A stretch of 64,000 nt of DNA from Tolypothrix carrinoi HA7290-LM1 (lineage in GTDB: Bacteria > Cyanobacteriota > Cyanobacteriia > Cyanobacteriales > Nostocaceae). Each line of letters opens with the position of its first letter. Position 1 is the first letter of the stretch. A program made the position numbers and the translations under genes. Where the stretch lies: NCBI GenBank assembly GCA_019358935.1, contig JAHHIK010000024.1, forward strand, positions 1-64,000. Reading direction: 5' to 3'. Shown piece by piece: positions 13,092-49,534 of the stretch. A model generated the notes under the pieces. That model did no database searches. It saw nothing but the letters and a program-made list of their open reading frames with translations, and was not told where the DNA came from.

Positions 13092-13161
13092 AAAAGGTCA
13101 ACCCCGCCAACCGTGTATTACATGGAAATGTTTGATTTCAAAGGTACGTATCTCTGTTGTT

Positions 13162-15388: not shown

Positions 15389-15518
15389 TCATAGGCTTTT
15401 GGAGAGATGAGGTCAGAAATTTTTGTACCATTTCACTTTGATTTTGATGCACTTGGCATCACCGTGCCAAAACGGGAAAATTGTACGCTAAGGCTGAAAC
15501 CCATATCAAAAAAGCATT

Positions 15519-16824
15519 TCAGCGATACTTGTTTTCCTTGACCCGCAAAGGACGCAACTTGTCAAAACTGGTAGCCTGTTTCAAATTCCAGACATAATCG
15601 CCAGTAAGATTGATATGCTCCCACCCCAATGGTGACAAATGTTGTAAGTGTTCTTCAGGAATATCCATTCCCTGTTGTTTTAAATAATCCACGGCTTTTT
15701 CTAAGTAGACCGTATTCCACATCGGATACTTGTTCGCCGGAATGTAAATGCGTAAAATGCTTAGTGAATTGCGTCCAAGAATCAACTTCTACTAACAAAT
15801 CAGTCAACTTAATTCTTGGCAGTAAACTATGAACTTTTCTGCTAAATCCATCAATCTCCTTCGGCACAGCATTGGTGAGAGGAGTGATAATTAACATCTC
15901 ATTTTCTATCCTGACATCAACCAGTTTCTTCTCTGCCATTAAAGAAGAAACAAGCGATAATTGTTCAGACAATTCGAGTGAGCGTTGTTCAATATAGGTA
16001 GTAAAATCCGTCATCACTGCCACAGGTATAGTGTTAGAAGAACGCATTGACTGCCATGAACTATCTGCTAACAAATAATCCTCAAAATCTTGGAACTGCT
16101 TCGAGCCTGCTACCCAAATATCCCCAGAACGCAAACCACTACGTAACTCAGCTAAAGCACACATCTCATAGTAGTGACGGTCAATAGTATCGCCCTTAAT
16201 TACGTGTTTTGACCAACGAGGTTTAACGAAACTAGTGTCCGCAGATTCCGGTACTTTTCGACCGCCTGATATATTTAATTCTTTAATGACCTCCAAAGCT
16301 TTTATCACTGGTAAACTGGCTCCGGTAGCTTTAAACTCAAAGGTCTCCAACAATTTAGGCGTATACCGTCGTAATTGTGAATAACGGTTATCAAGCAATT
16401 CAAGATAATCAAAATCTGCGGGTCTGGCTAGTTTTTCAGCTTCAGCAACAGTACTGATAAATTTCTCCCAATCCAATACAGACTCAATCGCTTGATAGGC
16501 ATCATTGGACTCATCTCTAGCTGCAATTAGCGCCTTACCCACTTGAGCATACAATCGGACTTTCTCATTAATCGCTTTCCCATCACGTTGAAACTTATCG
16601 CCGTGCTGATGCTCACTTTTGTTAAACAATTTACCCATCATTTTATCGTGCATACCTATGGCATAATCGACCAATGACGCGCTCCATTCAATGAGAAAAG
16701 CAACTAAAATAGCATAGCGTCTCAGTTCATCTAACCTAGATAGGTGAGCAGGTGTAGACATAGAATCGGGAATTTCAGTAAATTGTAGTCGCTGTGCTGG
16801 AGATAAAAGTTCGCGCGTTGCCAA
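15519..16824 (-). pseudogene. tnpA: Tn3-family transposase with two internal deletions
   Basis: Motifs YEMCALAELRSGLRSGDIWVAGSKQF, LPRIKLTDLLVEVDSWTQF and C-terminal WNTVYLEKAV...SPLGWEHINLTGDY. Only ~440 of the usual ~1000 codons remain; the DDE core is absent. Confidence 0.9.
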
Positions 16825-16846
16825 TTAAATACCTGTATATTTGATT

Positions 16847-17317
16847 TCAAGCAGTAGTTTGATTTTGTTTGTAATTCGCGCCGCAGTAAGGGCAAAATTT
16901 GAATTTCAGCGACATAATTGGTTCGTTGCAACTAACACAGCGATTCCGTAAGGCTGTACCACAAGCAAAGCAATACTTTGACCGTAAGTCAGTCCACATT
17001 TGGTCAGGGGTAGTTCCTGGAGTCCAACATTTTGGGCAAAATTTTAACGTAGTTATTGTTTCTGGGGAGACTTTCTTCGCCGCCGCATCCAAGTATTCCG
17101 GTGGTATTCCCAACGCAGAAGCCAGACCACCTTTAGCCTTTTGATTGAGCCTCGAAGTTTGTCCACCTTCAATTTTGCGGATAGTCTGGATATGTATCCC
17201 CGCTTTGAAACTCAACTCTTTTTGGGTTAAAGAAAGATGACCTCGCAATCTCTGGACGTAATTAGCAAGCCCTTCTTCCCCCGTGGGAAGCGTCGAATGT
17301 TCTGTTATCACTATCAA
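16847..17317 (-). CDS. XRE-HTH / double zinc-ribbon protein
   Basis: LTQKELSFKAGIHIQTIRKIEGG HTH; four CxxC pairs (CPKC, CFAC, CVSC, CPYC). Confidence 0.85.
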   Translation of the reverse strand: MIVITEHSTLPTGEEGLANYVQRLRGHLSLTQKELSFKAGIHIQTIRKIEGGQTSRLNQKAKGGLASALGIPPEYLDAAAKKVSPETITTLKFCPKCWTPGTTPDQMWTDLRSKYCFACGTALRNRCVSCNEPIMSLKFKFCPYCGANYKQNQTTA

Positions 17318-17400
17318 AATATATCTAAAAGTATATTTATTAATAATAATTATATATCTACACTTTTATTCAAATAAATTGCCAAAAACCTCTCTTCGTA

Positions 17401-18294
17401 ATGATGACTTTAGCTGCTTTAGCCACCGCGTTTTTAGAACGTCCGGGGCTAGCCAAAAGTACTCTACGTTCTTATGAGTCTACGATTATCCCCTTACTCA
17501 AGGAGTATGGTCGATGGTCAATATAAATCATTGACCGACAAATCTTGGTAGAATACCTCAATGATCTAACTGATGTTTCCTATACTACCCACCACCGTCA
17601 TCAAGCTGTAATCACGGCTTTGTTCAACTTTGCTGTTGATATGGGATATGTCAAATCCAATCCAGTTGCGGGACTCGCAAGACGCAAACCCATTCGAGAG
17701 CAAGGAGAACACGCTACGGATGAATTGGTTCGTTATCTTACTCCTACTCAGTTAAGTGTCCTGTATCAAATGATCAAGCCAGATGTGCGAATGTCTGCGT
17801 TGGTGCGTTTGTTGCATACCAGTGGCGCTAGAATTGCTGAGATACTGGCTCTAAATTTAGATGACATAGACCTCAAAACCCGGAAATTTCAGGTGATTGG
17901 GAAAGGTAACAAGCAACGGTGGTGTTTTTACAGTGAAGTGACTTCTTTTAGTCTAAATTACTACATTAAATATTATAGACACCCCAACCATTCAGCACTA
18001 TTTACTGCTCAACAGCCAAAAACTTTGGTTGTCTCCCGTCTGTCATACCGGATGGTGCATAAATCTTGGACTAACCTTATTGGGGAAACTCCGGAACTCC
18101 AAGAAATTCGTATTCACGACCTACGGCATACTTTTGCTACAGAGCGAGTGGGGCTAATGGGGATTGAAGAACTCAGGGCGCTCATGGGACATGAAAGCAT
18201 TCAGACAACATTACGGTATCAGAAAGTCACATCCCTTCGTGCTGAAGAAGTAGCACAATTGGCGTTTAAAAACTTACAAAATTTTTCGGAATAA
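17401..18294 (+). pseudogene. Tyrosine recombinase (resolvase of the Tn3 element) with premature stop
   Basis: Catalytic motifs SGARIAE, GKGNKQR, HDLRHTFAT, MGHESIQTTLRY. The frame opens at ATG 17401 (MMTLAALATAFLERPGL) with TAA at 17524-17526. Confidence 0.85.
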
Positions 18295-18878
18295 TTTCAG
18301 TATATAGCTTAATTATGTGGATATAAAAAATACTTTTTTTACCAAAAACTATCAAGGTGCAGGGAATATATACTACTCTGCACCAATAAAATGAGGGTAA
18401 TCAGCCGATCTTCGGGTGAAGGGTGAAAAGTCAGTGGCTAAGATGCTTCCTGGGCAACGCTTTCAGCCTTAGCGTACAATTTTCCCGTTTTGGCACGGTG
18501 ATGCCCACTTGCCTTTCATTTATTTCTGTTGATTGAGTGAGTGTATTGCTCGTTTGAACCGATACTTGAAAACAGCTAAAAAATACTCCTAAAGTCAACA
18601 AGGCTGTTGATTAATAACTCTTCAGCCAAATGAATGCAATACCATCATGTTGGATAGAATCGTAAGAGTTAATTTTTAGCTCGAAAGCTCAAAACCCTCT
18701 CTCTATTTTATTTATGGGCAAGCGCGTGCATTTTTTTCAATTACGATTCACGCTTTCAAAGTCAAAAGTAAATTCAGTGGGATTTGAGTTAACTGGATTT
18801 GGGTTAAGTGGAGTGTAAACTACCCACCACCATAGCTGTACTCAGCTATGGTGGGGGCTTTCAGAAGCCCTAGAAATA

Positions 18879-20283
18879 TCAAATAAGCGATCGTTGCACG
18901 TACTCAGATTTTCTCCCAATACGCACATCTAGCTTACAAGACAATCCCGAACCACGAGGCTGGTTTACAATCACAGCCCCAATTGCAGAAATATTTTTTG
19001 CACCATTCAAATCAGCGTCACCAATCCATCCACAATGGCCACAAGCAAACTTCTTAGCACTGCGATACGATTCACCCTTTACTGGATGAACGTGCAAGCA
19101 GTTGTGGCAAGTTTGACTTGTATAGCGCGGGTCAACAAAAACCAGCTTCACCCCAAACTTGATCGCTTTGTAGGTTATGAATTGCCGCAACTGATAAAAA
19201 CTCCAACTGTTAGACAATCGGCGTTCTCGTTTACTACGCGGCAAACTGTTTGTGCGTTCCCTAATTCCTGTCAATTCTTCCAAGGCAATCGTCGCTTTTG
19301 TTGTCTTGGCAGACTTTACAAGTTGATAGCTGGTAACGTGATTAATGTGAGCCTGAAAGCGCCGTTCTTTGCCCGACAACCGTTGCTGAAGTTTTCGGCA
19401 TCTACGCCGACCACTTCTTGTGCCTTTCGCAGCTTTGTGCTGGAGTTGCGCCCTAACTTTGGCGTACTTGTCTCGAATCTTGGTTATACTTTGTCCACTG
19501 AATTTATCTCCATCAGAAGTAACCGCAATGTCTGTTCTCCCTAGATCAACGCCCAAAACTTTATCGGTCTGTTCAGGTGTTGGTGGTTCAGACTCAAGCT
19601 GAATATTCAGGTAGTATGTGCCATTATTGCGCAGGGCAAACGCATCTTGTCAACAAGAGCCTCTAAATGTCAATAAAGTCCAAAAGAATCGCATTAATGC
19701 CCGCTTATTGACAAGTCTGTTAGCGATCGCTTAACCCCTGAAAAACCAATTCCCCCAATAAATTCTTGTTCTCCCGTTGATACACTAATTAACTTTTTTG
19801 TCAAGACTAATTAAGATGCGTTTGCCCTGCATTATTGCGTTTTACTAAAGTCGCTGTTTTAGGGTTTTGTGCCTTCAACAATCCCCTTTGGTAATTACCA
19901 ATGGCAAGTTTAAACCTTTCCCTGCCACCAATCAATGTTAAGCTAGCCGTCCAGTCTTTCTCTCGAAAGCTGAACGTTCTTACATCGTAAGTAGCCGAGG
20001 TTGGAGCAAACTTTGTGACAGCAAACCCTTTTTGCTTGGCGGTTTTGCGATTTCCAGACACTCTCCTTACCGCATGAATAGCCAACTGAGAAGACAATCC
20101 AAACAATGCCCTGACATCGTGATAAACCAAAGACTGCATCGCCAGTTCGTTTACTAAAGTTAGTGGTGCAGTCTTGTTCACGTATTCGCAAGCATCCGCG
20201 AAAGCCTGCAACGTTGCATCAATTTTGGCAATTTGCTCAGATGTGACTTGGATTTTGCAGGATACTGTCAGGACTTGCTTCAT
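18879..20283 (-). pseudogene. tnpB: TnpB RNA-guided nuclease split by a MITE
   Basis: RuvC motifs GVDLG, IALEEL, DADLNGAKNI and zinc finger TSQTCHNC...CGHC. The halves join as LVKRNN|GTYYLNIQLE after removing the insert. Confidence 0.92.
19632..19829. mobile_element. 198-bp ISAs1-type MITE
   Basis: 17-bp perfect TIR CAGGGCAAACGCATCTT. 10-bp TSD CATTATTGCG at 19622-19631 and 19830-19839. Confidence 0.9.
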
Positions 20284-33852: not shown

Positions 33853-34899
33853 ATGGCTAAAACTAAGAAATCAGAAAACGTTCCCAATGCGATGCAAGAA
33901 AAGTTCGATGGCATTGTGGCTTCTTCGGATGATTTTGCAAAACTTCATTTGAACTCGGAATATGCCCAGTTGATTCGTTTTGCAACAGCAGCTCTGTGTC
34001 GGAAGAGACCATCTCCCCTGGCAAGCGGTAAGGAGAAAACTTGGGCTTGTGGCATTACCCATGCTATTGGTATGGTCAATTTTCTCTTTGACCCTTCACA
34101 AAAACCCCATGTTAGTGCCAAAGAAATCTACAATTGGTTTGGTGTAAGTCCCAGCACCGGGCAGTCAAAATCAAAACAGGTACGAGATATCCTGGATATG
34201 CGGCAGATGGACCCTGATTGGTGTCTGCCGAGTAAGTTAGACAACAACCCGATGGCTTGGATGATTTCTGTGGATGGATTTATCCTGGATGCCAGGTCTG
34301 TTCGCCGAGAAATACAGGAAGAAGCATACGCACGGGGTTTGATTCCTTATATTCCGGCTGATGGGAAACCGGAAGATATTGATGAGAAACAAGCATCATC
34401 CCAACAAAGCAAACCAGTTAACTTTTCTCCCGATGCCCTGTATGTGCTAGATGTTTTTATAATTGACGGTCCAATCGCAGAGAAATTTATCGCCAAAAAT
34501 CCAGTGATATCCCGAACCATTGAGATTAAAGGCAGCAATACCCTGGAAGACCTCCATAAAATTATCTTCAAAGCATTTGATCGCCAAGAAGAGCATATGT
34601 ACGAATTTCAAGTGGGAGGTTGTGGACCACAAGACCCAAATGCTAGAAGGTATGGCTTGAAACAAGCATTTTCTTTTTTCCATTTTGCAGAAGCGCCTAC
34701 AGGCGATGTGTCTAGCACCCCAATTGCTTCTCTGGATTTATCTATTGATGATGCTTTTGGTTACTGGTTCGATTTTGGTGATGATTGGTGGCATCAGATT
34801 AATGTAACCAACATCGCAGACAAGACTCCAGAGAGCAAGTATCCCAGAATCACTCTTGTGGTTGGGGCTAGCCCTCCTCAATACGCGGATTTTGAGTAA
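33853..34899 (+). CDS. DUF6398-like plus plasmid pRiA4b ORF-3 family protein
   Basis: N-domain WACGITHAIGMVNFLFDPSQKPH. C-domain RTIEIKGSNTLEDLHKIIFKAF...HMYEF...YWFDFGDDWWHQI. Confidence 0.75.
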   Translation: MAKTKKSENVPNAMQEKFDGIVASSDDFAKLHLNSEYAQLIRFATAALCRKRPSPLASGKEKTWACGITHAIGMVNFLFDPSQKPHVSAKEIYNWFGVSPSTGQSKSKQVRDILDMRQMDPDWCLPSKLDNNPMAWMISVDGFILDARSVRREIQEEAYARGLIPYIPADGKPEDIDEKQASSQQSKPVNFSPDALYVLDVFIIDGPIAEKFIAKNPVISRTIEIKGSNTLEDLHKIIFKAFDRQEEHMYEFQVGGCGPQDPNARRYGLKQAFSFFHFAEAPTGDVSSTPIASLDLSIDDAFGYWFDFGDDWWHQINVTNIADKTPESKYPRITLVVGASPPQYADFE

Positions 34900-34959
34900 C
34901 AAAAACGGGCGTTACTGATTCATAGGATGATTTCGGCTCATTGTCGGTTCGCGGACATA

Positions 34960-35117
34960 TGTCACTGTAAGGATAAGTTGAGCAACTCTGAAGGCATAAG
35001 TTGAGCAATAGATTCCTTGAAACCCGATTAAACTCTTGTATAGCGTAAAAGTAGAAATAGAAGTTTTGAAAGCATAAGTTGAGCAAATGTTATATTTAGA
35101 AACTATAAGTTGAGCAA
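34960..35117 (+). repeat. tns-proximal transposon end with four putative TnsB-binding sites
   Basis: ATAAGTTGAGCAA at 34973, 34996, 35074 and 35105. Confidence 0.88.
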
Positions 35118-35212
35118 ACATTTTCAATATGAGCGCTCATAAATACATAACGTTGTGCTGTGATAAACAGTAGGAGGAACTCGGACTTAGACCCAGGATT
35201 AAAGAAAGCATT

Positions 35213-37960
35213 ATGCTCTCGAGCCAAGAGTTTAATAACTGGTGTCATACTCAACACCTCAGTCCAGCAGCGCAAGCAGTAATCTCAGAGATTCGCAGCA
35301 CCAACCCATCTCGTCGAGTAACAGGGGGTAGGAAAAATGTTTGTGGCTCTTACCCCAGTAGAAAAATGGGAGTAACAATCCAATTCGAGAGCCACCGTAA
35401 CGAATTAGCACGTATTTACGAACTAGAAAACGACCCCGAAGTACTCGAATATTACGACCAACCAAAGCCCATCGAGCTAGTTTACTCTTCAAAAAGTGGG
35501 CGTAAAAATAGACATCAATATACACCCGACTTCTTTATTATTCGGACCGATTGCGCTCTTTGGTGCGAATGCAAAACAGAACAAGAACTAAACAAATTAA
35601 CTAACATTAGTCCAAATCGATATTGCTTCCAGTCAGATGACAAATGGCATTGTCCCCCAGGAGAAAACTATGCTCGTCTTTATGGTTTCGACTTCCAAGT
35701 ATGGTCAGATGCTCAAATTAACTGGAACTTTCAACAAAACTTAATTTGGCTAGAAGATTACTTCGGTTACTCGTCAGGAATCATAAAAGAAACTGAAAAG
35801 TTTTTGATTGTAGACATTGTTAAAAATCATCCAGGGATAAGCCTTGCAAAGCTTTTAACAAATAAAGATATCAATCCCGATAGCGTTTATTGGTTAATTG
35901 CTTTTAATGAAGTTTACGTAGAACTTAATAAAGTAAAACTCTCGCAAGCTGAGACAGTACTCATATTTATTAACCAAGATGTTGCTTTATCTTATGAGTA
36001 TCTAAACAAGAGTGAATCACATCAAAAAACCAGTAATCAAACAGGATTGCAAATAGCTGTGGGTACTTGTATTTCCTGGGATGGAGAATCTTGGGAGATA
36101 GTAAATACAGGAACTGCAACTACTGGATTATTACGTGCAGATGGCAAGCTTATAGAGCTACCAAATACAGCATTTACAACGTTAATTGATAATTGTAAAA
36201 TAGCTGGAGTCGGTACAACAGAAAGCGAAAATATTAAAGCAGCATCAACCGGAATTCTACAACAGGCAACTTGTCTTGACATTATAGAAGCCAACCGTCG
36301 CTACAGTTTAATACAACCATACTTAGTGGATAATCCTCCAATATACCCAAGCAGTACAATCCGTCGTTGGCGCAGTCAGTACCAAAAAGCTTTATACATC
36401 TACGGAAATGGATATATAGGATTACTGCCTAATCACAATAGTAAAGGCAACCGTACAGCAAAAATTGATGATAAAACCAAAGAATTTATGCTCGAATTTA
36501 TACTAAAGCATTATGAAACACCCAAACAACGAAGAAAATTACGGGTTTATGAGTCATTTGTTTTAGCTTGTCAAAACCACGAACCGCCATTAAAACCTCC
36601 ATCCCGAATTACATTTTGCGCTTATATCAAAACTAGAAGCGGACATCATCAAACTAGAAAGCGTCTTGGTAATCGGGCAGCTATTCCAGAAGAGCCATTT
36701 TACTGGGAATTAGAGCAAACTACGGAAAGACATGGCAGTCGTCCCTTTGAGATTGTCCACATTGACCATACTCAACTTGATATTGAATTAGTCAGTTCCC
36801 TCGAATCTCTAACTAGTTGTCATATTGCCACAAACAAGGATTTTCATCAAAATTTAGGTCGTCCTTGGGCAACCTTTATGGTTGATGCATATAGCCGGAA
36901 AATTTTAGCCGTTTACCTCACTTTTGATGAGCCAAGTTATCGAACTTGTATGATGGTAATCCGCATAGTAGTGCAGCGATTTGGTCGATTTCCTCAAAAT
37001 ATAGTTGTAGATAACGGTGCAGAGTTTCACAGTCACTATTTTGAACAATTATTAGCATATTACACTTGCACTCTCAAATATCGACCACCAGCACATGCCA
37101 GGTTTGGTTCAATTGTTGAAAGATTATTTGGGACAGCCAATACGCAGTTTATTCATGAGTTACAAGGTAATACCCAAATTAAACGTCTTAACCGCCAAGT
37201 TACCTTATCAGTTAGTCCAGAACGATTAGCAATTTGGACATTAGAAGAACTATATTTAGCTATATGCGAATGGGCATATTCAGTTTATGACCAAAGATTG
37301 CATCCCACATTAGGTAAAAGCCCTCGCGATGCTTTTGTCTACGGACTTACCATTGGCGGAAGTCGTTTACATCGACGAGTCGAATATGACGAATTATTTA
37401 ACATCTTAACTCTACCTGCACCCGATGGGGGACAACGGAAAGTTCAACCCGGAAAAGGGGTAAAAATCCATAATATTTATTACTGGGCAGACATATTCCG
37501 CGACCCAGAAATTGAGAAATCAATGGTCTGGGTTCGGTATGACCCTTGGGATGCAGGAGTTGCCTATGCTTTAGCAGGAAAACAATGGGTAAAATGCATT
37601 TCTTCTTACTATCAATATTTCCAAGGACGTTCAGAAAAAGAAATTCGACTCATTAGCGCAGAACTTAATCAGCACAAACGTAATTATGAGAGAAACCGGA
37701 CAATAACGGATAAAGAATTAGTGAATTTTTTAAATTATCAACAAGCATCTGAAGGGCTTTTTCTTAAACAACGCTTGCATGATGCCGAACATTACAAAAT
37801 TCACAAAATTATTCAAAATCGTTCTGACGAACCACAGAAACTATATCCTACTTCTTCGGAAAAATCAAATGATATTGAGTTACAAGAATCTAATGAGACT
37901 GAGACAAATTGCCATTTCAACTCCGACACAGAAACCTTTGAATATTATGGAGAGTTTTAA
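35213..37960 (+). CDS. tnsAB: TnsA-TnsB fusion transposase
   Basis: TnsA motifs YPSRKMG..QFESH.E, YYDQP, YTPDF, ECK. DDE motifs VHIDHT, VDAYSR, VDNGAEF, VERLFGT. Confidence 0.92.
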   Translation: MLSSQEFNNWCHTQHLSPAAQAVISEIRSTNPSRRVTGGRKNVCGSYPSRKMGVTIQFESHRNELARIYELENDPEVLEYYDQPKPIELVYSSKSGRKNRHQYTPDFFIIRTDCALWCECKTEQELNKLTNISPNRYCFQSDDKWHCPPGENYARLYGFDFQVWSDAQINWNFQQNLIWLEDYFGYSSGIIKETEKFLIVDIVKNHPGISLAKLLTNKDINPDSVYWLIAFNEVYVELNKVKLSQAETVLIFINQDVALSYEYLNKSESHQKTSNQTGLQIAVGTCISWDGESWEIVNTGTATTGLLRADGKLIELPNTAFTTLIDNCKIAGVGTTESENIKAASTGILQQATCLDIIEANRRYSLIQPYLVDNPPIYPSSTIRRWRSQYQKALYIYGNGYIGLLPNHNSKGNRTAKIDDKTKEFMLEFILKHYETPKQRRKLRVYESFVLACQNHEPPLKPPSRITFCAYIKTRSGHHQTRKRLGNRAAIPEEPFYWELEQTTERHGSRPFEIVHIDHTQLDIELVSSLESLTSCHIATNKDFHQNLGRPWATFMVDAYSRKILAVYLTFDEPSYRTCMMVIRIVVQRFGRFPQNIVVDNGAEFHSHYFEQLLAYYTCTLKYRPPAHARFGSIVERLFGTANTQFIHELQGNTQIKRLNRQVTLSVSPERLAIWTLEELYLAICEWAYSVYDQRLHPTLGKSPRDAFVYGLTIGGSRLHRRVEYDELFNILTLPAPDGGQRKVQPGKGVKIHNIYYWADIFRDPEIEKSMVWVRYDPWDAGVAYALAGKQWVKCISSYYQYFQGRSEKEIRLISAELNQHKRNYERNRTITDKELVNFLNYQQASEGLFLKQRLHDAEHYKIHKIIQNRSDEPQKLYPTSSEKSNDIELQESNETETNCHFNSDTETFEYYGEF

Positions 37961-39069
37961 TGTCAACCGAAAAAAGCTTTCCTCGTGATTTACTCCAGCG
38001 ACCCCAACACGATAGAGTTGCTTATTTCCAGCAATATACAATGGCACATCCGAAATTACTACTAGCTTTTGAGAAACTAACACATGCAATTGATGACCCG
38101 GCTTCTGTTGCTTTAATCTTTTTATTTGGTCCAACTGGTGTTGGTAAAACAACTTTACTGCGTCGCATGACGACTAAGTTGCTAACTTCAAATATTGAAA
38201 AAATGGAACAGGATAAAGGCTTTATTCCTATTGCTGGGATTGAAGCTGCTACCCCTGAATTTAGTAACTTTAATTGGAAGGATTTTTACTTACGTGCTTT
38301 AACTGTTCTCCAAGACCCATGCCTGGAATTACCAGGTTACGGTCAAGTTACTAATTCAAAGTTGAAAACTTCGCTGGAAACTGCACTTAAATATCGTCAA
38401 CTTCAAGTTTTTTGCATTGATGAAACACAAAATCTAAGTAAAGTTGCCAGCGGACGTAAATTACGCGACCAAACTGATTGTATCAAATCGCTGGCTAACT
38501 TGACGGCTGTTAAGTTTGTACTGGCGGGTACTTATGATTTATTAATACTCCGAAATTTGAGTGCCCAACTGTGCCGACGTAGCCTGGATATCCATCTGGA
38601 ACGCTACAAAGCCGAAAATCCGGAGGATTTAAAAGCTTTCAGAGGTATTGTCCAAACCTTTCAACGCCATTTACCTCTTGAAGTTGAGCCGGATTTACTT
38701 AAACACTGGGATTTTTGCTACGAGCGCAGTTTTGGTTGTGTGGGTATTCTAAAAGATTGGCTATGCCGTGCGTTTTTTTGTGCATCTTCTCAAGGAGCTA
38801 AAACTCTGACTATTAAACACTTGCAGTTGTCTGCTTACTCTACTGAACAATGCATGATTATAGTCACTGAAACTAAACATGGAGAAAAGCAGCTTGAGTT
38901 AATAGAGGATAGTTCTGCTTTAAGAATTGCTTTAAGCTTAGAACATAATAATGATGCTTATGCTTCAGCTACTCATATTGCTACAGCTCCAAAAAAATCC
39001 CGTCGTGACAAAGTAGGCGATACTAAACCTCAGCGTCGTCCAGTTGGAGGAGGTCAAAATGCCAGTTGA
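37960..39069 (+). CDS. tnsC: TnsC/TniB AAA+ ATPase
   Basis: Walker A GPTGVGKT, Walker B FCIDETQ, LSAQLCRRS. Translationally coupled to tnsAB (TAATG overlap). Confidence 0.92.
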   Translation: MSTEKSFPRDLLQRPQHDRVAYFQQYTMAHPKLLLAFEKLTHAIDDPASVALIFLFGPTGVGKTTLLRRMTTKLLTSNIEKMEQDKGFIPIAGIEAATPEFSNFNWKDFYLRALTVLQDPCLELPGYGQVTNSKLKTSLETALKYRQLQVFCIDETQNLSKVASGRKLRDQTDCIKSLANLTAVKFVLAGTYDLLILRNLSAQLCRRSLDIHLERYKAENPEDLKAFRGIVQTFQRHLPLEVEPDLLKHWDFCYERSFGCVGILKDWLCRAFFCASSQGAKTLTIKHLQLSAYSTEQCMIIVTETKHGEKQLELIEDSSALRIALSLEHNNDAYASATHIATAPKKSRRDKVGDTKPQRRPVGGGQNAS

Positions 39070-39949
39070 ATATTTGACTAACTATGAGTCTTGGGATTTT
39101 GACACAAATGAACTTCCTCTTCGTAGTCCTCTTTACTCTCTTCTTCCTATCGGTATTGGTACACCCGCAGTTGAAAGTTTTACCAGTTACCTGACTCGCT
39201 TGGCGGCGGCTCATGGTGTTTCTGTTACTACTTTGATTCGCTATAAAATTGCACCATTATTTATCGAGAGCAGTATTGCAACAGATTTACTATCCGCCTA
39301 TATTATCAGAATACTTATGGATGCTTCGCCCAAAAAGCCTACAACGCTCTTGATTCAAACTGCTGGATTTTGGTTAGACCTAACTCAAAATGCTTCTAAG
39401 CTCGTCTGTGCTGTTAAAACATTGACTGGTAGGCAGGATATTCATTATACGTCGCTACTGTCAATGCAAGGGTGGCGGCTAAAGTTTAACAATATTTTTC
39501 ATTTCTCACAACGCTGGTGTCCTAGCTGCTATTCTGACTGGCGCCACGGCGGAAAGCCTATCTATCAACCTTTGTTATGGGCTTTGGAACCTGTAACTGT
39601 TTGCCCCCATCACCAACGTTACCTACAGTTGCGATGCTTTGATTGCAATGGTTTACAGCCATTTCTCGTTTTGGACAAAATTCAAGTTGGTTGTTGTTGT
39701 ATATGTGGTGCATGGCTAGGACAAATTTTAGAGTCGGAGGCTAATTTCAAGTTGCCCGACCTTGTTTGGGACTTGTGGTTTGCTCAAGTTCTGGGAAAAC
39801 TCCTGGCTGCGACACCAGAACTTGTTACAAATCCGACTAGAAAGGAAACTCGGTTTAGAGAGCGCCCAATATTTCATAGTCTAAATTGGTTTTTAAGGCA
39901 GTGTTATCAGATAGGAATCAATCCTGTTGAATATTTGAGTAATTTTTAA
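39059..39949 (+). CDS. tniQ: Short TniQ family target-selector protein
   Basis: ESFTSYLTRLAAAH and zinc ligands WCPSC, CPHH, CFDC, CCIC. GGAGG RBS before ATG 39059. About 296 aa, with no long TnsD-type C-terminal domain. Confidence 0.9.
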   Translation: MPVEYLTNYESWDFDTNELPLRSPLYSLLPIGIGTPAVESFTSYLTRLAAAHGVSVTTLIRYKIAPLFIESSIATDLLSAYIIRILMDASPKKPTTLLIQTAGFWLDLTQNASKLVCAVKTLTGRQDIHYTSLLSMQGWRLKFNNIFHFSQRWCPSCYSDWRHGGKPIYQPLLWALEPVTVCPHHQRYLQLRCFDCNGLQPFLVLDKIQVGCCCICGAWLGQILESEANFKLPDLVWDLWFAQVLGKLLAATPELVTNPTRKETRFRERPIFHSLNWFLRQCYQIGINPVEYLSNF

Positions 39950-40035
39950 ATGAAACTTGGGTGTATTTGAGTTCAACTCGCTTCGGCCTGAAGTCAGGGC
40001 GCAACATCCGTAGCGCTATACTTTTCTCCTCCTTC

Positions 40036-40116
40036 TTTGTAAGTATAAGGCTAGTTTATTCAAGCAGAAAGCATAAAGTAAGCAACAAGCATCTCTTAAG
40101 ATGCTTACAGTTAACA
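40036..40116. repeat. Degenerate relic copy of the transposon's tns-distal end
   Basis: TTTGTAAGTATAAG...GAAAGCATAAAGTAAGCAAC...ATGCTTACAGTTAACA is collinear with the real end TTTGTAAGCATAAG...GAAAGCATAAAGTGAGCAAC...ATCCTTACAGTGACA (40932-41007). Confidence 0.8.
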
Positions 40117-40160
40117 AATGGTTAAAAGTATCAGTAAGCTATGCCCCGAACGCCCTAAAA

Positions 40161-40194
40161 TATCTATACGAGTGTATCTCCATCAGTGTAGATA
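40161..40194 (+). promoter_or_regulatory. Inverted-repeat operator TATCTAYAC-N16-GTGTAGATA overlapping the cargo start codon
   Basis: TATCTATAC (40161-40169) and GTGTAGATA (40186-40194). Same architecture at 41051-41084. Confidence 0.7.
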
Positions 40195-40781
40195 TGGTGA
40201 AAATAGAGCGCGAGTCTATCAACTTCAAATTGCCAAAATCGTTATGTGACGGACTCAGAGCCGCTGCGGAACAACGCAACACTACCGCCACTGATTTGGT
40301 AATTCAAGGGTTGCACCATATTTTGGGGGATGTACCTGGTGTGGAGGCTAGTGTCGAAGTTCGTTTAGACCAACTTGAAGAAGAATTTTGGCTTCTCAAA
40401 CAAAACATTAATCTAACCTGCACCAACCCCGATCAAGAAAGTAGGTTAACTGCATTGGAGAATAAACTCGAAGCTATGAGTACTCGACTCGCTCAGTTTG
40501 AAGGGGCGATAACGCAACTCCAATATAGCGTCAATTCATCAAAATCCCGCAAATCGGGACACCCCTATCAATTTAGTTCCCAACCGCCACAACTCCAACC
40601 CCTTGATGAGAATAAACTAGCTTTCAGACTTAATACTACTGTAGCAACATTAACTGAAAAACGTACAACCCTCAGTCCCAAAGAGTTTGAATCTTGGACA
40701 AGAGACAAAGACAGTATTAGACGTGGATGGCAGTTCAACGATAAAGATGGTCTGTACCATGAAGTAAGCGCTTTCTTTTAG
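40194..40781 (+). CDS. RHH-coiled-coil-HTH-like DNA-binding protein (transposon cargo), paralogue of 41084..41659
   Basis: MVKIERESINFKLPKSLCDGLRAAA...TTATDLVIQGLHHILG is nearly identical to the N-terminus of the downstream gene. Shared C-terminal LA.RL...EFESW.R.KD...GW.FN...GLYH. Confidence 0.8.
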   Translation: MVKIERESINFKLPKSLCDGLRAAAEQRNTTATDLVIQGLHHILGDVPGVEASVEVRLDQLEEEFWLLKQNINLTCTNPDQESRLTALENKLEAMSTRLAQFEGAITQLQYSVNSSKSRKSGHPYQFSSQPPQLQPLDENKLAFRLNTTVATLTEKRTTLSPKEFESWTRDKDSIRRGWQFNDKDGLYHEVSAFF

Positions 40782-40931
40782 GAGTGAATGAGAATTGCTG
40801 GTGGTGACATACCCTCTCTGTTGCACCCAACATCTATTACATTACCCGAAGCGCTTCAGCAACACTGTAAAAAATGCATCCAATACCGAGCGAGTTCAAG
40901 AATTATCTATTGAGCGATTGGAAGCATTAGG

Positions 40932-41007
40932 TTTGTAAGCATAAGTTGAGCAAGTCTCTTTGAAAGCATAAAGTGAGCAACTTGCTCAACTTATCCTTAC
41001 AGTGACA
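40932..41007. repeat. tns-distal transposon end with three putative TnsB-binding sites
   Basis: ATAAGTTGAGCAA at 40941, ATAAAGTGAGCAA at 40968, inverted TTGCTCAACTTAT at 40982. Confidence 0.88.
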
Positions 41008-41050
41008 ACATATTTTGAACTAAATATTAATACTCATCCTCGTTGTAAAC

Positions 41051-41084
41051 TATCTACACGAGCGTATATAACTGGGTGTAGATA
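41051..41084 (+). promoter_or_regulatory. Inverted-repeat operator TATCTACAC-N16-GTGTAGATA, 43 bp outside the transposon end
   Basis: Perfect 9-bp inverted repeat whose last base is the A of the ATG. Confidence 0.75.
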
Positions 41085-41659
41085 TGGTACGAATCGAACG
41101 GGAATCCATCAACTTCAAACTCCCCAAACCCTTAGCTGACGCACTTCGAGCCAAAGCTGCCGAGCTAGACACCACCGCTACCAATTTAGTCATCGAGGGG
41201 CTGCATCACATCCTGGGAGAGATTCCGGGTATAGAAGATAGTGTAGAAAATCGTCTACAACAACTCGAAGCTCAATTAAACCACCTCGCTAATAGTACAG
41301 ATAAGCGTGTAGACACTGATGTAGACAACAGACTTAGTTTGTTAGAGCAGAAACTAGAAGCACAAGCATTACAGTTGGCAAAAATTGAAGGAGTTATAAC
41401 AACCCTTAGTCAACAGCGTTCGCATACAGGTGGTGGCTACAGAAGGCAAGCTTTTAATTATCATCCCCCACAACTAGAACTTCAGCCTTACACGGGGGAA
41501 AATTTAGCTAAAAGATTGGGAGTTGATATCGCAACCCTAACAAGAGAGCGAGAAAACAACACCCAGGCTGAGTTTGAATCGTGGTGTCGTCGCAAAGACC
41601 CAAGTCCGGTGGGGTGGCGTTTTAACTCAAATTCGGGACTTTATCATCCCGTAAAGTAA
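41084..41659 (+). CDS. RHH-coiled-coil-HTH-like plasmid DNA-binding protein (gene flanking the insertion site)
   Basis: SINFKLPKPLADALRAKAAELDTTATNLVIEGLHHILG RHH pattern, coiled coil, LAKRLGVDIATL helix-turn-helix. Confidence 0.8.
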   Translation: MVRIERESINFKLPKPLADALRAKAAELDTTATNLVIEGLHHILGEIPGIEDSVENRLQQLEAQLNHLANSTDKRVDTDVDNRLSLLEQKLEAQALQLAKIEGVITTLSQQRSHTGGGYRRQAFNYHPPQLELQPYTGENLAKRLGVDIATLTRERENNTQAEFESWCRRKDPSPVGWRFNSNSGLYHPVK

Positions 41660-41822
41660 ATGGTGATGGGTTCTGTGTAAGCGTTGCGCTCTTGCGGCAG
41701 CGCAAATCGCTTTATAAAGGCTCATGTCGGAGCAATAATACTTATAACTTAGGTTTCTACCACAAGCTTACTCTCTTACACGATCGCTTAAACTTGCGTG
41801 TCATTCACCTTGACACCTATAC

Positions 41823-44800
41823 CTACGCTAATTCCATCTCTTTCCTTTTGCCTGATCCCCTGGAATTTGCTTCTAAGACAGGAGATTGTAGTTGGGCTGA
41901 TTTTGATGTCAGAATAATCATCTCTTGCAATTGCAGTGCCCCTGCATCTGAGAGGAGTAGGACTTCTTCTCCGGTATGAATATTGCCTTTGCAGATAGTT
42001 CGCTTGGATTCCGAACGCACAAAGAAATCACCATTGGGTTGCACGTAAGCAGTCCAACTGTTGCCAATTTTGAACTGTTTAGTTTCAGTATTATCAGGCT
42101 CTCTTTCTTGCCTGCGTTTGTACGTATTACTGACGGCTTCAAAGAGCAAATCTTGCATTTCTTTGCGCCAGTCTGAGCTAATGTTAGTCTGCGTGGTACT
42201 GTCTGTCTGGGTTTCGCTTTGGGCGTCTGGCAAGCGAATAGAATTAGGGTCAATATTGAGTACAACGGTAGCACCCAACGGTGACAATGAAGCTTGGAAT
42301 GTAGTGCCGATAGGTAGTTTAGGGGTATCAGGGGCGAAGGTTCCCAGATTTTTACCATCAATTTGAATAATGGGGATGCCATTGTAGCGGTAGAATTCTG
42401 GGTGCGATTCAGTCAGCTCAAAAGTGCCGACTTCTAGAGTGACTTTCTGCTTTTTCCATTTTTTATTAGCAAAGTCTTCATTCTTCAAGTCGTTGTATTT
42501 TATGCCTAGCACTTTGATTTCATCAAATTGAAACTGTTGTAGTTGATCTACAATTTCCTCCATGAATAAGTGGTAGGCGATCGCTCCTTTTCCCGGTTCA
42601 GTTCTCGATTCCACCCAGGCGCAATCAGCAGGTGGGACAATCATTACATTGTCCGGCATTTGAAGAGTGTCAATGTCGTTGTAGTTGTTGCCGTATTTAG
42701 CTTCTAGCTTTTCGATTTGTAATGGTGACAAGCTTTTTAAGGCAAACTCAACTAGCGGTAATCCTGGGTGAACTGTTGCCTCATATTCGATGCTTTTTTG
42801 GTCGAGGGATTCTTTCCATTCTTGAACTTTCTTTCCAAATGGAACTTGCAGGACATAGATATCTCGCGGGAGTGCCTCATGGAGTAACTCGTAGTCTGGT
42901 TCAAGGGAAAATGTCATTTTGAGCGTTTTGGCAATCTTTAGACATTCCTCTTTGTGGCTATCGATGTCAAGTTTGGTATGTTGCGTATGCCAAGTAGCAG
43001 CAGCGGCGCGAAAACGTTCTTCTTTTGTGGGGAATAACTCATCGATTTCGGCACGGTAGCTATCGTAGAGTTTCCCTAACTCTTCATTGAAAACGTCTTT
43101 GTCGTCTCCAATTCGTTGGGCGATCGCCGCAATATCTTGTTTAGATCGTTTTTTGAGTTCTTCAGCCCATTCGAGTTCATCTACGCCGAATGTCTCTTTC
43201 GGAAACAGATACCGAAATTCGTGGCGTTCTCGGTGTCGAATACGTGTCGCTTCCCAGTGGGGATTTACCGCTTCTCTTGGGATTACATTAATCGGGTTCG
43301 GTTCCTCAGCAGGCATAGGAAAAGTTTTGTAAAGTCGGTTGTCTTTTTTGAAGTCGAAGAAGTAACTTGGATGAGCTTCCGACCATTTTTTCGAGTCTGG
43401 TAGCAAGTTTTCCCCGTCGATTTCCTTGATATCCTCCAACCGTTCTGCACTTTTTTGGTAATCAACTTCAGGCTGTAATGCTATGAACAGGCGATTTAGC
43501 AATCTTGTTTTCTTGCGCTCAAACAGTCGGGGGTTTTCATCTTCATTCGGGACTGATGATTGGACTCTTCCAATTGTTGTGGCGACTAAACCAATTTTAT
43601 TCTGGGAACTGGCTGCGGCTATGCTTGACAAAGTTCTATATTTTTGCTTACCCTGAGCATCTTTGACTGCGGTGTAGGGAACTTTAGGGCGTTGTTTAAC
43701 TTCAGCATAGCGCCTGGGTTCTCCGGCGCGTAGAGTTTCAGCAGCAATCTGGGGTAGCATTTTAGATGGAGCAACTACCATTTGGTCGCCGTCAAAGTCA
43801 GCTTGGTGGTATTCTTCAGCGTCTTTTGGCTGCATGAAGACAACACCTTTGTATTTCATTAGTTCTAGTTTGTGAACATTTGTATAACGTCTGATGTTAT
43901 CGCTGGAGACAATTGGAAAGCGAGTGGTGATAATATCGCCTTCGCTTAGGTGAGGTACGCAGATTGTTCCTCTTTCCAAGTCTGTACATGGCATAGCCAT
44001 CCCAGAACTAAATTTGAAAGCTCCCTTGATTGCCAAGTCACACCAGCGATTGGCAACGTATTGTCGCATAGCATCAGCAACAAAGGGGCTGTCGATCAAA
44101 AGACCAAATTTATCGTTGCGTAGCAGAGTAACGAGCCGTAATTCTTGTTGTTCTTGATTTTTGTCAGTATTTTCACGTTCTAATGAGTCATCAACTGAGA
44201 GTGCAGCATATTCCCTGGCACGCTGTTGTTTCTTGTCGTACTCTTCAACAATGTGTTTAGCTAAAGCGAGGGGGTTGCGTTGGAGCTTGGCTAGTTTTTC
44301 GGCTTCTTTTCGAGTTGGTTCTACGAAGTCTTTCTTGAGAGCCTCTTCGCTATACCAAATGCTAAATTGCCAGCTGTTGTCATAGTCGATTACTTTAGCA
44401 TTACCCCGGTTGCCCAAAGCACTTCTGGGTAACTCATATTCGCCGCAAGGGATTAAATCAAGTAAAAGAGTTTTCTTAATCCCTTTAATTGAGGAGCGAT
44501 CCATAACAATATCAAACCCCTCTGCTTCTAAAGTGGCATTGGGTAGTAAAGTGCCTTTAGCCAAGAAACTAGTTAAGGATTGCTCCGGATTATCTGCCCA
44601 GTTTTCTAGCCAAGCAAAGCGAAATTGGAAGGGTCGGTTAGCTAAACCTCCCATGAGTTTAACAAGGCTAGGTGATACTTGTCCATGACAGTCTCCGGTT
44701 TTATATTTTTCGGCTTCAGCTTTCTCTTTGGGGTCTTTGCTGTTATAGTCCACAATTTTGATTCGTAGACCTTCAATTTGCTCTGCTCCCTTAAAGCAAT

Positions 44801-47306: not shown

Positions 47307-48143
47307 TCACAGTGTTTGAATCGCTTTGAAGACGGACTCTTGGGTGAGGTAGAGCGATCGCATACTGGCACTTGCCGAATCGAAGTAAGTGGCGAAGCGT
47401 TTTAATTCCCCCGTTGTTAGTTGAATTAAATAATCAGTGGCAACTGCTGCTACTTGTTGGTTGATGCTCAAGCTTTGAGTATTGAGTAGCGCCATTTGTT
47501 CGCATGATAAATTGTTGTCCTGCAATTCCTCTGGTAGTGGAACCAAAAGTTCTGGATGTTGGATTGTTGGCGAGGGGATTTGGCTACAGCCAAGGGGTCC
47601 AAAGGTATAATCTTGCGGGGCATTAGATAGATTTGAACCTAATAAAACCTGTCCGCTACTTTTACTATTCCCACAGTCTAAATACCAGATTGAAGGAGCC
47701 TGATTAGAATTGTAATCGTTATGTTTCAGCACTTGTGAAAGTGACTCTCGCGCCGAAGCATTATCCACGCACCCAATAATAATTGACAGTGTTTTGTACC
47801 CTGCTTGTACCATTTTTGGGTGAAAGCGTTTGGTTATTGCTTTAATTTCCATCCCCCAGGCAATTGAATATCTTAGAGCTAATGTTTGGGCTTTGAGCAA
47901 GCCGATTTCTTTATAGCAGAAGCACTGCCTTAGTACATTAGCTTCTTCGACAACATCATGATCTACGAAAGTGACTTGCACCTCTTTACCCGTATTGCTT
48001 AAGCTACAAGCAAGTCGAACAACACTCGCAGCAAGCCAACTCCCAGTCCCTCCCATTCCAACGACCCAAAATTCAATGCGGGAGTGTTGTAAAAGAATTA
48101 GCTTTGATGCGTTAACAAAATCATAGTAATGGTTCATGTTCAT
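47307..48143 (-). CDS. ThiF/E1-like adenylyltransferase (PRTRC-type)
   Basis: VVGMGGTGSW, VDHDVVEEANVLRQ, KAQTLA, IIGCVDNASAR, YLDCGN...GQVLLG, LSCEQ. Start reassigned to 48143. Confidence 0.92.
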   Translation of the reverse strand: MNMNHYYDFVNASKLILLQHSRIEFWVVGMGGTGSWLAASVVRLACSLSNTGKEVQVTFVDHDVVEEANVLRQCFCYKEIGLLKAQTLALRYSIAWGMEIKAITKRFHPKMVQAGYKTLSIIIGCVDNASARESLSQVLKHNDYNSNQAPSIWYLDCGNSKSSGQVLLGSNLSNAPQDYTFGPLGCSQIPSPTIQHPELLVPLPEELQDNNLSCEQMALLNTQSLSINQQVAAVATDYLIQLTTGELKRFATYFDSASASMRSLYLTQESVFKAIQTL

Positions 48144-48840
48144 CCAAAGAATTATCCAGAATTGGAGAATTAGTATTCGAGTAAAATTTGTAGGCAATTG
48201 CTGAGTCACAAGAGATGTCGTGCATAAACTCAGGTAGTTCAAAGACGTTGCTTGCAGGGATATCCCAGTAGTTTCTGAAAATTCCCACTCTGACTCGGAT
48301 TTCAGGTTCTTTGGTGTTGACTCGCCCCAAAACAGCATAGATGCGGAACCCTCCTTCGTCAGCATCATCGGTTGTTGAGAAGAAGGCTTTCATTGCATGA
48401 TGAGAATGCACGTCCACAGTAGCGTTGTGGAACGAAGAATCGCCGTCAAATCTGGTTGGTTGACAGCTTGCGCTATGTTGAGTTTGGTCTGGTATTTCCA
48501 AGCGCCAATTGTTCTGTTCATAGTGAATGTGAAAAGCAATTTCTACTGCACCTTGAGCGTTACAAGCGAGGCAACTGCGTCGCCACATTTCTAGCAATAT
48601 TGTTTTAGGAATCTTATTTGGTTTGAGTTGCAAATAAGGTTCAATAATTGGCAATCCTCGGATATTTTCTCTGTAGTATTCCACGGGCATCAATACTTCT
48701 AATCCTGGGCGGATGCCTCTAATGAATACTCCATTCCCAGCAAAAAGATATTCAAACAGAGAACTGGTATGAGATGGTAAAGGGAGTTGACGGACAATTT
48801 TGTAGTCAACTATTTCCTCAAAATTAACTAGCTGAATCAT
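48121..48840 (-). CDS. JAB/MPN metallopeptidase (PRTRC protein A-like)
   Basis: YLFAGNGVF, VEIAF and DVHSHHAMKAFFSTTDDADE (HSH-x7-S-xx-D JAMM motif). Confidence 0.9.
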   Translation of the reverse strand: MIQLVNFEEIVDYKIVRQLPLPSHTSSLFEYLFAGNGVFIRGIRPGLEVLMPVEYYRENIRGLPIIEPYLQLKPNKIPKTILLEMWRRSCLACNAQGAVEIAFHIHYEQNNWRLEIPDQTQHSASCQPTRFDGDSSFHNATVDVHSHHAMKAFFSTTDDADEGGFRIYAVLGRVNTKEPEIRVRVGIFRNYWDIPASNVFELPEFMHDISCDSAIAYKFYSNTNSPILDNSLDEHEPLL

Positions 48841-49534
48841 CGGCAATTTCTGAAAATAAAGTTGCAATGGTAGCCTTTTTATCTAAAGGCACAAGGTCTT
48901 TGAGCGGGTAAGTGCAGTTTTTCTGCTGATGCAAAGCTAAAAGTTGATCGCGGACATCATTTGTATGGTGCTTCGATTTGCCATTACTTAAATGGGAATT
49001 AAACGGACTAGAAATGAAAAGATTCCAAGCTTGATTAATGGATTGGGCAGAAGCAGATGGGGGTTGATTTTTACCCCAGCAAACTTTTCCCCACGGCGTG
49101 TACACATTTGGCAGTGGGGCATGGAAAAGGCTGGCATCAGGGTCGAATATCTTAATTTTGGTTGCCCATAACCAGTAGGTAAAATTTTTGCCGACAAATA
49201 TCATTGCAGGCATTGGAATTTGAACTTGCCCTAGTTCGTCACAGTCAAGTAGTGTTCTTTGTGGCGGGACGAATTTAACTACCCATTCCCCAGAGTTGCT
49301 AGTACAAGTGCGAACTACACCTTCACCTATCCAACCAGAGTCGATAGGTTCATTGCTAAAGGCGATGCGTAGTGCCGTTGGTGAGAGACATTTGTAGTGT
49401 GATTTTTCTCCAGATTGGTAATGCAGGATGTAAGTGCCATCAAGGATTAGTAGCTCGGCTTTGATTGCAGATAAGCTTCTGGGAGGGTCTTGTAAAAGCT
49501 CCCTGATTATTTCAGCAGTGATGATGTGTTCCAT
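48824..49534 (-). CDS. Prokaryotic E2 family D protein (PRTRC protein B-like)
   Basis: IPMPAMIF, LFHAPLPNVY...GKVCWG with putative catalytic Cys, FISSPFNSH. Confidence 0.85.
   Translation of the reverse strand: MEHIITAEIIRELLQDPPRSLSAIKAELLILDGTYILHYQSGEKSHYKCLSPTALRIAFSNEPIDSGWIGEGVVRTCTSNSGEWVVKFVPPQRTLLDCDELGQVQIPMPAMIFVGKNFTYWLWATKIKIFDPDASLFHAPLPNVYTPWGKVCWGKNQPPSASAQSINQAWNLFISSPFNSHLSNGKSKHHTNDVRDQLLALHQQKNCTYPLKDLVPLDKKATIATLFSEIADDSAS

Follow-up and report, generated by a model that had tools for sequence, protein, structure and literature searches.

Architecture of the element

The DNA analysed here, called the window throughout, is a stretch of 64 kb from the cyanobacterium Tolypothrix carrinoi HA7290-LM1 (contig JAHHIK010000024.1, positions 1 to 64,000). 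It harbors a Tn7-like transposon of 6048 bp (34960-41007) that carries a tnsAB fusion gene, tnsC, a short tniQ and one cargo gene, and that ends just upstream of a paralogue of this cargo gene. Comparison of the sequences of related insertions suggests that this minimal member of the Tn7 family probably homes, as a preference, to a palindromic operator laid over the start codon of a gene family of Nostocales plasmids.

All the marks of a heteromeric Tn7-like transposon are present: a TnsA-type endonuclease with a DDE transposase TnsB, an AAA+ regulator of the TnsC/TniB type, TniQ, TGT...ACA termini, multiple end repeats and a 5-bp target-site duplication. The bounds were set by a terminal inverted repeat of 26 nt, 100% complementary between the two ends, since this repeat is flanked by ACATA on both sides; the complete element with a target-site duplication reported in a first-pass annotation of this DNA is thereby confirmed. 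That annotation named position 34960 the left end, and its range (34955..41659) took in the left duplication and the outer gene. By the Tn7 convention the right end is the one beside tnsA, and the names used here are tnsAB-side end (34960) and tniQ-side end (41007). The TnsAB domains lie in a single protein (PF08722, E = 9e-9, residues 74-163; rve, E = 2.5e-10; Mu-transpos_C, E = 6.8e-6). The tniQ-side end has two inner repeats that run in the direction of those at the opposite end, and a terminal repeat that is alone in being inverted; this arrangement yields a hairpin-like pair (I2) and is also found at the related locus L024.

Scans of positions 34800-41900 returned no cas gene, tandem array, Rfam match or Cas model match, as the first-pass annotation had also stated for cas genes and arrays, and the element holds four open reading frames (ORFs) only. 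It therefore has neither the cas genes nor the clustered regularly interspaced short palindromic repeat (CRISPR) array or guide that would mark a CRISPR-associated transposon (CAST), and it is not inserted beside a CRISPR repeat, as its flanks are an intergenic region and a regulator gene, with no array. Nor is it of the Tn5053 type, as no recombinase gene was found among its ORFs and a TnsA domain is present. The features are listed in Table 1.

Table 1. Features of the transposon, its insertion site and the flanks of its sister clade
Feature	Position	Strand or side	Basis
Target-site duplication ACATA, tnsAB-side copy	34955..34959	.	Read from sequence
tnsAB-side end ("right end" in the Tn7 convention), with terminal 26-nt inverted repeat 34960-34985	34960..35117	+	Repeat analysis
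Four repeats of ~25 nt resembling TnsB sites, in the tnsAB-side end	34961, 34984, 35062, 35093	+	Repeat family D1
tnsAB fusion gene, 915 aa	35213..37960	+	PF08722, PF00665, PF09299; TnsB model E 4e-15
tnsC, AAA+ regulator, 369 aa	37960..39069	+	AAA_22 E 3e-14, TniB E 8.5e-11
tniQ, 296 aa from conserved Met (ORF opens 39044)	39059..39949	+	PF06527; TniQ_IB model
Fossil (decayed) tniQ-side end, 78 bp before cargo ATG	40036..40116	+	Aligned with 40932-41007
Operator-like inverted repeat of cargo gene	40161..40194	+	Pattern search
Cargo gene, 195 aa: ribbon-helix-helix-like N-terminus, coiled coil, winged-helix-like C-terminus; putative captured former target	40194..40781	+	
Functional tniQ-side end ("left end" in the Tn7 convention): repeats at 40929 and 40956, then inverted terminal repeat 40982-41007	40929..41007	+	
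Target-site duplication ACATA, tniQ-side copy	41008..41012	.	Read from sequence
Palindromic operator of target gene: proximal half-site TATCTACAC at +44, distal GTGTAGATA at +69 from the end	41051..41084	+	Pattern search
Target gene, 191 aa, outside the element	41084..41659	+	Protein comparison, PLSDB
Three half-site-like 9-mers, 12 nt apart, inside target gene	41301..41327	-	Motif scan; X14 end 43 nt from first
Sister-clade flanks with the clade's own motif	L022, L023, L026, L034, L036, L039, L042, L048; loose ends X14 at 41012, X15 at 41008	tniQ-side	

A decayed end and a captured target gene

Alignment of the DNA upstream of the cargo gene with that upstream of its outer paralogue revealed a second, decayed tniQ-side end in front of the cargo gene. 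This fossil end retains two internal repeats and the terminal ...GCTTACAGT, and it stands at nearly the same distance from its gene as the live end, which lies 77 bp from the outer ATG. One of its repeats is identical to that of the live end at 19 of 20 bases (family D2). The cargo and outer proteins share 50% identity (E = 5e-59), so that the paralogy proposed earlier holds, while the word "close" then attached to it was generous. Since the repeat has been kept at 19 of 20 bases while the proteins are only 50% identical, the fossil end appears younger than the gene duplication, which makes a tandem duplication of an "end plus gene" unit unlikely. Because the fossil end sits at the same spacing as the live end before the outer paralogue, we take the cargo gene, from these alignments, to be a captured former target of the element.

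The fossil end and the cargo gene are common to all close relatives, namely the Scytonema copies, the metagenome locus L049 and cluster P0040, whose longest contig is, at 5750 nt, just as long as that of the TniQ cluster P0002. The cargo gene has a ratio of nonsynonymous to synonymous substitution rates (dN/dS) of 0.33-0.37 when compared with the window copy and of 0.09 when L012 and L049 are compared; as these values are comparable with those of tniQ (0.43) and tnsC (0.21), the cargo gene appears to be maintained by purifying selection. We propose that an ancestor inserted upstream of the present cargo gene, that this end then decayed while a new end past the gene took over, and that the captured gene was from then on carried along with the element under purifying selection. 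As to the origin of the new end, our guess is a second copy or a mini element landing at the next operator downstream. A stretch at 40866-40880 was considered as a relic of the tnsAB-side end of such a second copy and dropped, an 8-base match being its sole support.

Recurrent insertion at the operator

The pattern TATCTAYAC-N16-GTGTAGATA occurs at exactly two loci in the window, over the start codons of the cargo and the outer gene (expected number 0.00, 100 shuffles). The outer copy starts 43 bp past the end of the element and the outer ATG begins at the 77th base, in agreement with the spacing first described. The operators align gap-free relative to the ATG, with the dyad at about -16.5.

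Related insertions were collected from one genome per species (34 pattern matches, 29 loci), from metagenomes by the end pattern (12 loci) and from a whole Scytonema genome (six tniQ-side and six tnsAB-side ends). Ends of the window's type amounted to nine distinct tniQ-side flanks, with L044, L047 and L053, which are one locus, counted once. Operators of family genes flank three of these nine ends (the window, L049 and the L044/L047/L053 locus), and the fossil end makes a fourth case. An outward-reading half-site, T-R-T-M-T-A-Y-A-C, begins at +44, +45, +45 and +39 in these cases, fossil included; in random segments of the window a 9/9 match to it somewhere in 40 scanned positions was found in 0.4%, and a match of at least 8/9 in 2.3%. 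A contig of the public run X15 likewise spans the tniQ-side end and continues into the window's flank, with 18 differences over 257 nt, while four element contigs of this run differ at 20 of 5942 positions (99.7% identity), which suggests the same position in a diverged site. The insertion at the L044/L047/L053 locus is a mini element of 266 bp (L047:1259-1524) whose tnsAB-side end is shortened and whose tniQ-side end is complete; it lies 71 bp upstream of a family gene.

The same gene family has also been entered from the other side. Related elements have hit it repeatedly: four insertions lie upstream of the operator, and two are mirror insertions within the gene. In one sample, a family gene is interrupted after codon 15, one half being found at L049 (a tniQ-side end) and the other at L052 (a tnsAB-side end), with the duplication CCAAA, and the tniQ-side end of L049 faces back to the operator. 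Counted from the alignments, the dyad and the centre of the duplication are 57.5 bp apart in the window, and 58.5 bp apart in L049/L052. Run X4 contains a whole element (about 95% identity) whose tnsAB-side flank is a family gene from codon 15, again starting CCAAA but belonging to another copy of the gene. Run X14 contributes an end within an outer-type gene, in mirror orientation, whose 29-nt flank is identical to window positions 41341-41369; for this intragenic event a half-site-like 9-mer stands at +43 in the window gene, the first of the three given in Table 1. Elsewhere in the family genes, the codons of a conserved S-V-E-x-R-L stretch (window 41241-41260, L028 and L073) form a small palindrome of the same half-sites (GTGTAGA...TCTACA). 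Contigs of the public runs aligned to the window gave no joint across the element and no empty site or excision product; as these are contigs, absence is not implied.

Taken together, these sequence positions support the control region of the plasmid gene family as a preferred insertion site. The first-pass annotation had placed the attachment (att) site at the promoter of a plasmid ribbon-helix-helix gene: the fossil end and the relatives inserted upstream and in mirror orientation uphold such a preference, while strict targeting is contradicted by six Scytonema flanks that lie elsewhere.

Insertions away from the operator

Several observations weigh against strict homing. None of the six tniQ-side flanks of the Scytonema genome, which holds the closest relative, is an operator; they are unrelated sites, the best half-site among them reaching 7/9 at +45 (L061). 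Four further junctions lie elsewhere inside family genes. Scytonema contig C15 has a family gene whose operator is intact and empty; tnsAB-side ends interrupt this gene twice, at nt 171 and near codon 91. For the X14 junction at codon ~31 of a family gene the usable proxy sequences have no half-site at +44. The insertion of the L047 type lies 5 bp nearer the operator, and its 266-bp mini element lacks a matching 5-bp duplication. None of the 23 PLSDB records that match the end adjoins any of 40 listed family genes (of 106 records), and the combined pattern of end plus gene was found in none of 300 genomes of the Scytonema family sample. As to how widely the end occurs, its pattern was present among 401 genomes of the window's order in the window's own genome only, and a search of viral contigs gave 0 matches.

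An expectation set out beforehand was that homologous elements would sit about 77 bp upstream of this gene family, insertion at unrelated sites or variable distances counting against it. Relatives in other samples do occupy the upstream position, and the six Scytonema flanks and the four other intragenic junctions lie elsewhere, which contradicts the expectation in part. We considered that the X14 intragenic junctions or those on C15 might be double insertions facing a second internal landmark; the C15 junctions (L070 and L072, genome G401), between which ~100 bp are missing from the assembly, are possibly two copies facing each other. From the flanks compared here, targeting is best described as a preference and not an obligation, with copies also landing at unrelated sites.

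TniQ as a shortened TnsD

Family alignment places the start of TniQ at the sixth codon (M6) of the ORF 39044-39949, giving 296 aa and confirming the length first reported. The protein matches PF06527 (E = 2.6e-15) and the TniQ_IB model (E = 1.6e-32), and its profile aligns with the TnsD chain 8v32_J (PDB 8v32, 462 aa; E = 1.3e-59) over residues 1-253 and 281-315 and with the I-B TniQ 8fcu_P (E = 3.8e-50). Nothing aligns past residue 315 of the 462 in 8v32_J, and the C-terminal helix-turn-helix (HTH) DNA-binding extension is absent. The TnsD of Tn7 itself has 508 aa, about 200 aa more than the window TniQ. In an exhaustive homologue search most TniQ homologues were of 450-650 aa and matched profile positions 1-265 only, and full-length homologues of ~300 aa formed only five 50%-identity clusters. 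Among 39 proteins at E <= 1e-3, 15 relatives were short (288-311 aa); the best TniQ in PLSDB is 54% identical. Since the long homologues match the first ~265 positions only and the alignment to 8v32_J stops where it does, TniQ is, as judged from homology, a TnsD of the I-B2/I-D CAST type that has lost its C-terminal ~150 aa. C159, C162, C187 and H190 (CxxC...CxxH, 301-aa numbering), which make up the CCCH zinc-finger motif of the TniQ core, are invariant in the family alignment, and TniQ also has a second Cys cluster.

A sister clade with a motif of its own

A sister clade (TniQ 52-54% identical, ends ...CTTATGCTTACAGTGACA) carries its own flank motif, ACAAAATAAG-N6-CTTATCTTTTATCCG, also written ACAAAATAAG-N6-CTTATCTTTTATCCGRYA...CGAT, at +21 to +65 in 8 of 13 tniQ-side flanks. 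No family gene was found beside this motif, and a search of these flanks against Rfam gave no match. The motif looks like a second att site, and because it differs from that of the window's clade at the same distance, specificity appears to track the sequence of TniQ. These flanks suggest that at least two minimal clades, the window's and its sister, have defined sites.

Among other relatives, L018, L019 and L020 of Calothrix brevissima NIES-22 are three 100% identical copies of 5639 bp, on chromosome and plasmid; their 5-bp flanks are unpaired within each copy and GCAAA pairs across copies, which suggests recombination between copies or misassembly. In L020 and L028, elements of two species, one conserved flank sequence is found at a distance of 27-30 bp, which points to an orthologous insertion or else to a third site. 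A plasmid match in Tolypothrix PCC 7601, followed as a lead to Tn5469, proved to be a lone end remnant devoid of transposition genes.

What reads the site

In the mechanism that we propose, the element would move by cut-and-paste transposition with the TnsA-TnsB fusion, TnsC and one short TniQ, a C-terminally truncated TnsD. TniQ would bind the half-site of ~9 bp (T-R-T-M-T-A-Y-A-C, read outward from the element) and load TnsC, and TnsAB would insert the element with its tniQ-side end about 43-44 bp from the half-site. As the operator is a palindrome, the same reading would work from either side; from one side the insertion would be harmless, 76 bp upstream of the gene, and from the other it would be mirrored and cut the gene at codon 15. 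Because this second orientation destroys the target gene, the carried paralogue with the same operator could compensate.

We lean towards a direct reading of the proximal half-site by TniQ. It is the simplest explanation on three counts: relatives show the same spacing, the intragenic X14 insertion is associated with direct repeats, and an ancestor of the element was using the site before it had a cargo gene. It has to be set against the missing C-terminal ~150 aa of TnsD, and the AlphaFold2 model of TniQ, built from a 16-row alignment, was unusable, with a predicted local distance difference test score (pLDDT) of 39. Deletion of the C-terminus of McTnsD is reported to abolish activity, and the related short-TnsD elements that target CRISPR repeats were not reconstituted in Escherichia coli, their authors proposing host factors (PMC11837452, cited here and below from part of its text). 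Given the lost C-terminus and these two results, a helper factor is plausible. Such a helper could be a ribbon-helix-helix-like repressor, of the plasmid or of the cargo, that recruits the truncated TniQ while bound to the operator, in place of the DNA-binding C-terminus that is missing past the equivalent of residue ~315 of the 462-aa TnsD. We consider this doubtful, though a good deal would fit it: insertions are symmetric about the dyad within 1 bp, as they would be around a bound protein that is itself symmetric, the cargo copy is under purifying selection, a spreading or multi-site binder could mark the several junctions elsewhere in family genes with half-site-like repeats, and the res-site hunters of the Tn5053 family offer a precedent (PMC11406308, likewise cited in part). 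The fossil end, however, indicates a cargo-less ancestor at the same site, so that the element-borne copy was not required; the half-site has the very position, 40-50 bp from the end, at which relatives contact DNA; the X14 event keeps a +43 spacing at direct repeats that form no palindrome; and the differing motif of the sister clade tracks the TniQ sequence with no family gene beside it. A complex prediction of TniQ with two copies of the cargo protein scored 0.06 and gave no answer for or against. Were recruitment true, the truncated TniQ would be unable to locate DNA by itself, and the element would hunt a protein-DNA complex that marks Nostocales plasmids, the repressor on the operator and on the intragenic half-site repeats, with its own copy of the guide aboard; such a natural Tn7 system would consist of two parts and be guided by a protein, with a plasmid regulator standing in for the lost DNA-binding domain of TnsD.

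That a state of the DNA, and not its sequence, attracts TnsC/TniQ, be it a promoter open complex, bent DNA, a cruciform or an unknown host factor at the palindrome, seems improbable. The target site does overlap a -10-like element (GTATAT/TATATA) along with the start codon, both orientations are used and off-site insertions are frequent, but the half-site spacing holds within a few bp whether at diverged operators or at a repeat inside a gene, which is no promoter, a consensus promoter scan did not call the promoter of the target gene, and the sister clade has a sequence motif of its own. Very improbable, in our judgement, is the absence of any targeting, with the layout shared by the inner and outer units arising from tandem duplication of end and gene and the other cases being inherited copies of one old insertion. 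Some metagenome matches are indeed one locus seen repeatedly (L044, L047 and L053). Against this stand the 50% protein identity of genes whose fossil repeat is kept at 19/20, the differing duplications (ACATA in the window, CCAAA at the mirror site), the differing target genes of L052 and X4, and the X15 element, 99.7% identical and yet with the 18 differences noted above in the stretch across its end. Inheritance of an upstream insertion could not produce the mirror orientation either, which contradicts this account unless the mirror cases are assembly artefacts. The sequences do not establish the "candidate new target-selection pathway" of the first-pass annotation: TniQ appears to be a truncated TnsD of the I-B2/I-D type, and its motif is placed as in relatives, which read DNA at 40-50 bp from this end (PMC11837452).

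The target gene family and the surroundings of the element

The target gene family comprises at least 308 proteins (E <= 1e-3), none of them named and all from cyanobacteria, and occurs on 106 Nostocales plasmids of PLSDB, including 47 of Nostoc, 18 of Calothrix and 10 of Tolypothrix; a neighbouring gene of 1111 aa is found on 94 plasmids. A family gene adjoins a MobV relaxase on a Nodularia plasmid, and another, carried by a Tolypothrix plasmid, has a tyrosine recombinase gene about 1.5 kb upstream of it. The AlphaFold2 model of the cargo protein (pLDDT 75.7) displays an N-terminal extended segment followed by two helices (H15-27 and H32-44, pLDDT 85-90), a long coiled coil and a C-terminal domain of three helices and a hairpin. 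The latter (residues 130-195, pLDDT ~88) is winged-helix-like, with weak fold matches to BldC and RacA, and is possibly a second DNA- or protein-binding module. For the N-terminus, weak sub-threshold matches to PF12441 (CopG_antitoxin) were obtained in 8 of 37 family members (best E = 2.6e-4), and Foldseek matched the ribbon-helix-helix of Arc and PutA at a root-mean-square deviation of ~1 Å over 35-37 residues with E > 1; sequence and predicted fold thus give weak support to a family of ribbon-helix-helix regulators. Elsewhere in the same genome, at C9:95013-95868 (L006-L010), lies a degraded family gene in several pieces with a stop codon, and the strict pattern found no transposon end near it.

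A NikA-like protein, a weak TrbI-like match and the 1111-aa neighbour known from those 94 plasmids make the surroundings of the element look like a plasmid or conjugative backbone. At 47307-49534 the window has adjacent genes for a ThiF-like (E1) protein and a prokaryotic E2 family D protein, possibly a ubiquitin-like conjugation or defence module. It also encodes two very large WD40-repeat proteins (1745-5335 and 59135-63871), one with an nSTAND1 NTPase domain, and IS630-, IS4/DDE- and TnpB-like genes (10313-19556).

Comparison with known Tn7-like systems

The machinery and its logic, a TniQ-family selector acting at a fixed distance, are already known. What is new is an att site that is a palindromic plasmid operator and is used from either side, a cargo gene that is a captured target, and evidence of targeting in two clades of "minimal" elements. 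The Tn7 family would thereby gain a kind of att site, a short palindromic plasmid operator usable from both sides, at which a 296-aa remnant of TnsD still gives position-specific insertion, and the fossil end offers a route by which a Tn7-like element captures its own target gene. TnsAB, TnsC and a small TniQ reading ~9 bp would also form a compact system in which to study how site reading is coupled to TnsC loading, and one that allows a direct test of a bound regulator as guide. The literature searched on Tn7-like elements with ribbon-helix-helix genes and on Tn5469 did not describe the att site, and the supplements of PMC11837452 and PMC9881144 may list these TniQs.

The closest precedent is the group of minimal cyanobacterial Tn7-like elements aimed at CRISPR repeats (Chacon Machado and Peters, Mob DNA 2025; PMC11837452). 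As far as the consulted part of that paper goes, they share with the window element a TnsAB fusion, TnsC, a single TnsD/TniQ devoid of the C-terminal HTH and the lack of cas genes, and also the presence on cyanobacterial plasmids and chromosomes, genomes with several copies, occasional off-target copies and a conserved motif 40-50 bp from the tnsD-side end. Unlike them, the window element has the operator of a plasmid regulator as its target, enters from both sides of a palindrome and carries a captured target; the TniQ of the Allocoleopsis plasmid is only 32.8% identical to that of the window. The TnsD homing arm of the I-B2 and I-D CASTs (TnsD of PmcCAST, 8v32; McCAST) resembles the present system in a TniQ homologous over its whole length, a TnsAB fusion, a 5-bp duplication and oriented insertion at a fixed distance, and differs in having Cascade, an array, a second TniQ, a selector of 462 instead of 296 aa and a tRNA gene as att site.

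Minimal cyanobacterial elements with TnsAB, TnsC and one TniQ, such as Tn5469, are described as probably untargeted in the portions consulted of PMC9881144 and PMC11406308; by that description they have the same gene set and host group, and the window element differs from them in its cargo gene and clear site preference. The res-site hunters Tn5053/Tn402 (Minakhina et al., 1999, as cited in PMC11406308, again in part) likewise use one TniQ and a protein-binding regulatory site typical of plasmids, which leads to plasmid-seeking spread, but they have no TnsA and possess a TniR resolvase with a res site, whereas here a TnsA domain is present and a resolvase is not. Finally, Tn7 TnsABC+D acts in one orientation at attTn7, an asymmetric site in a conserved chromosomal gene, in contrast to the short plasmid palindrome used here in both orientations.

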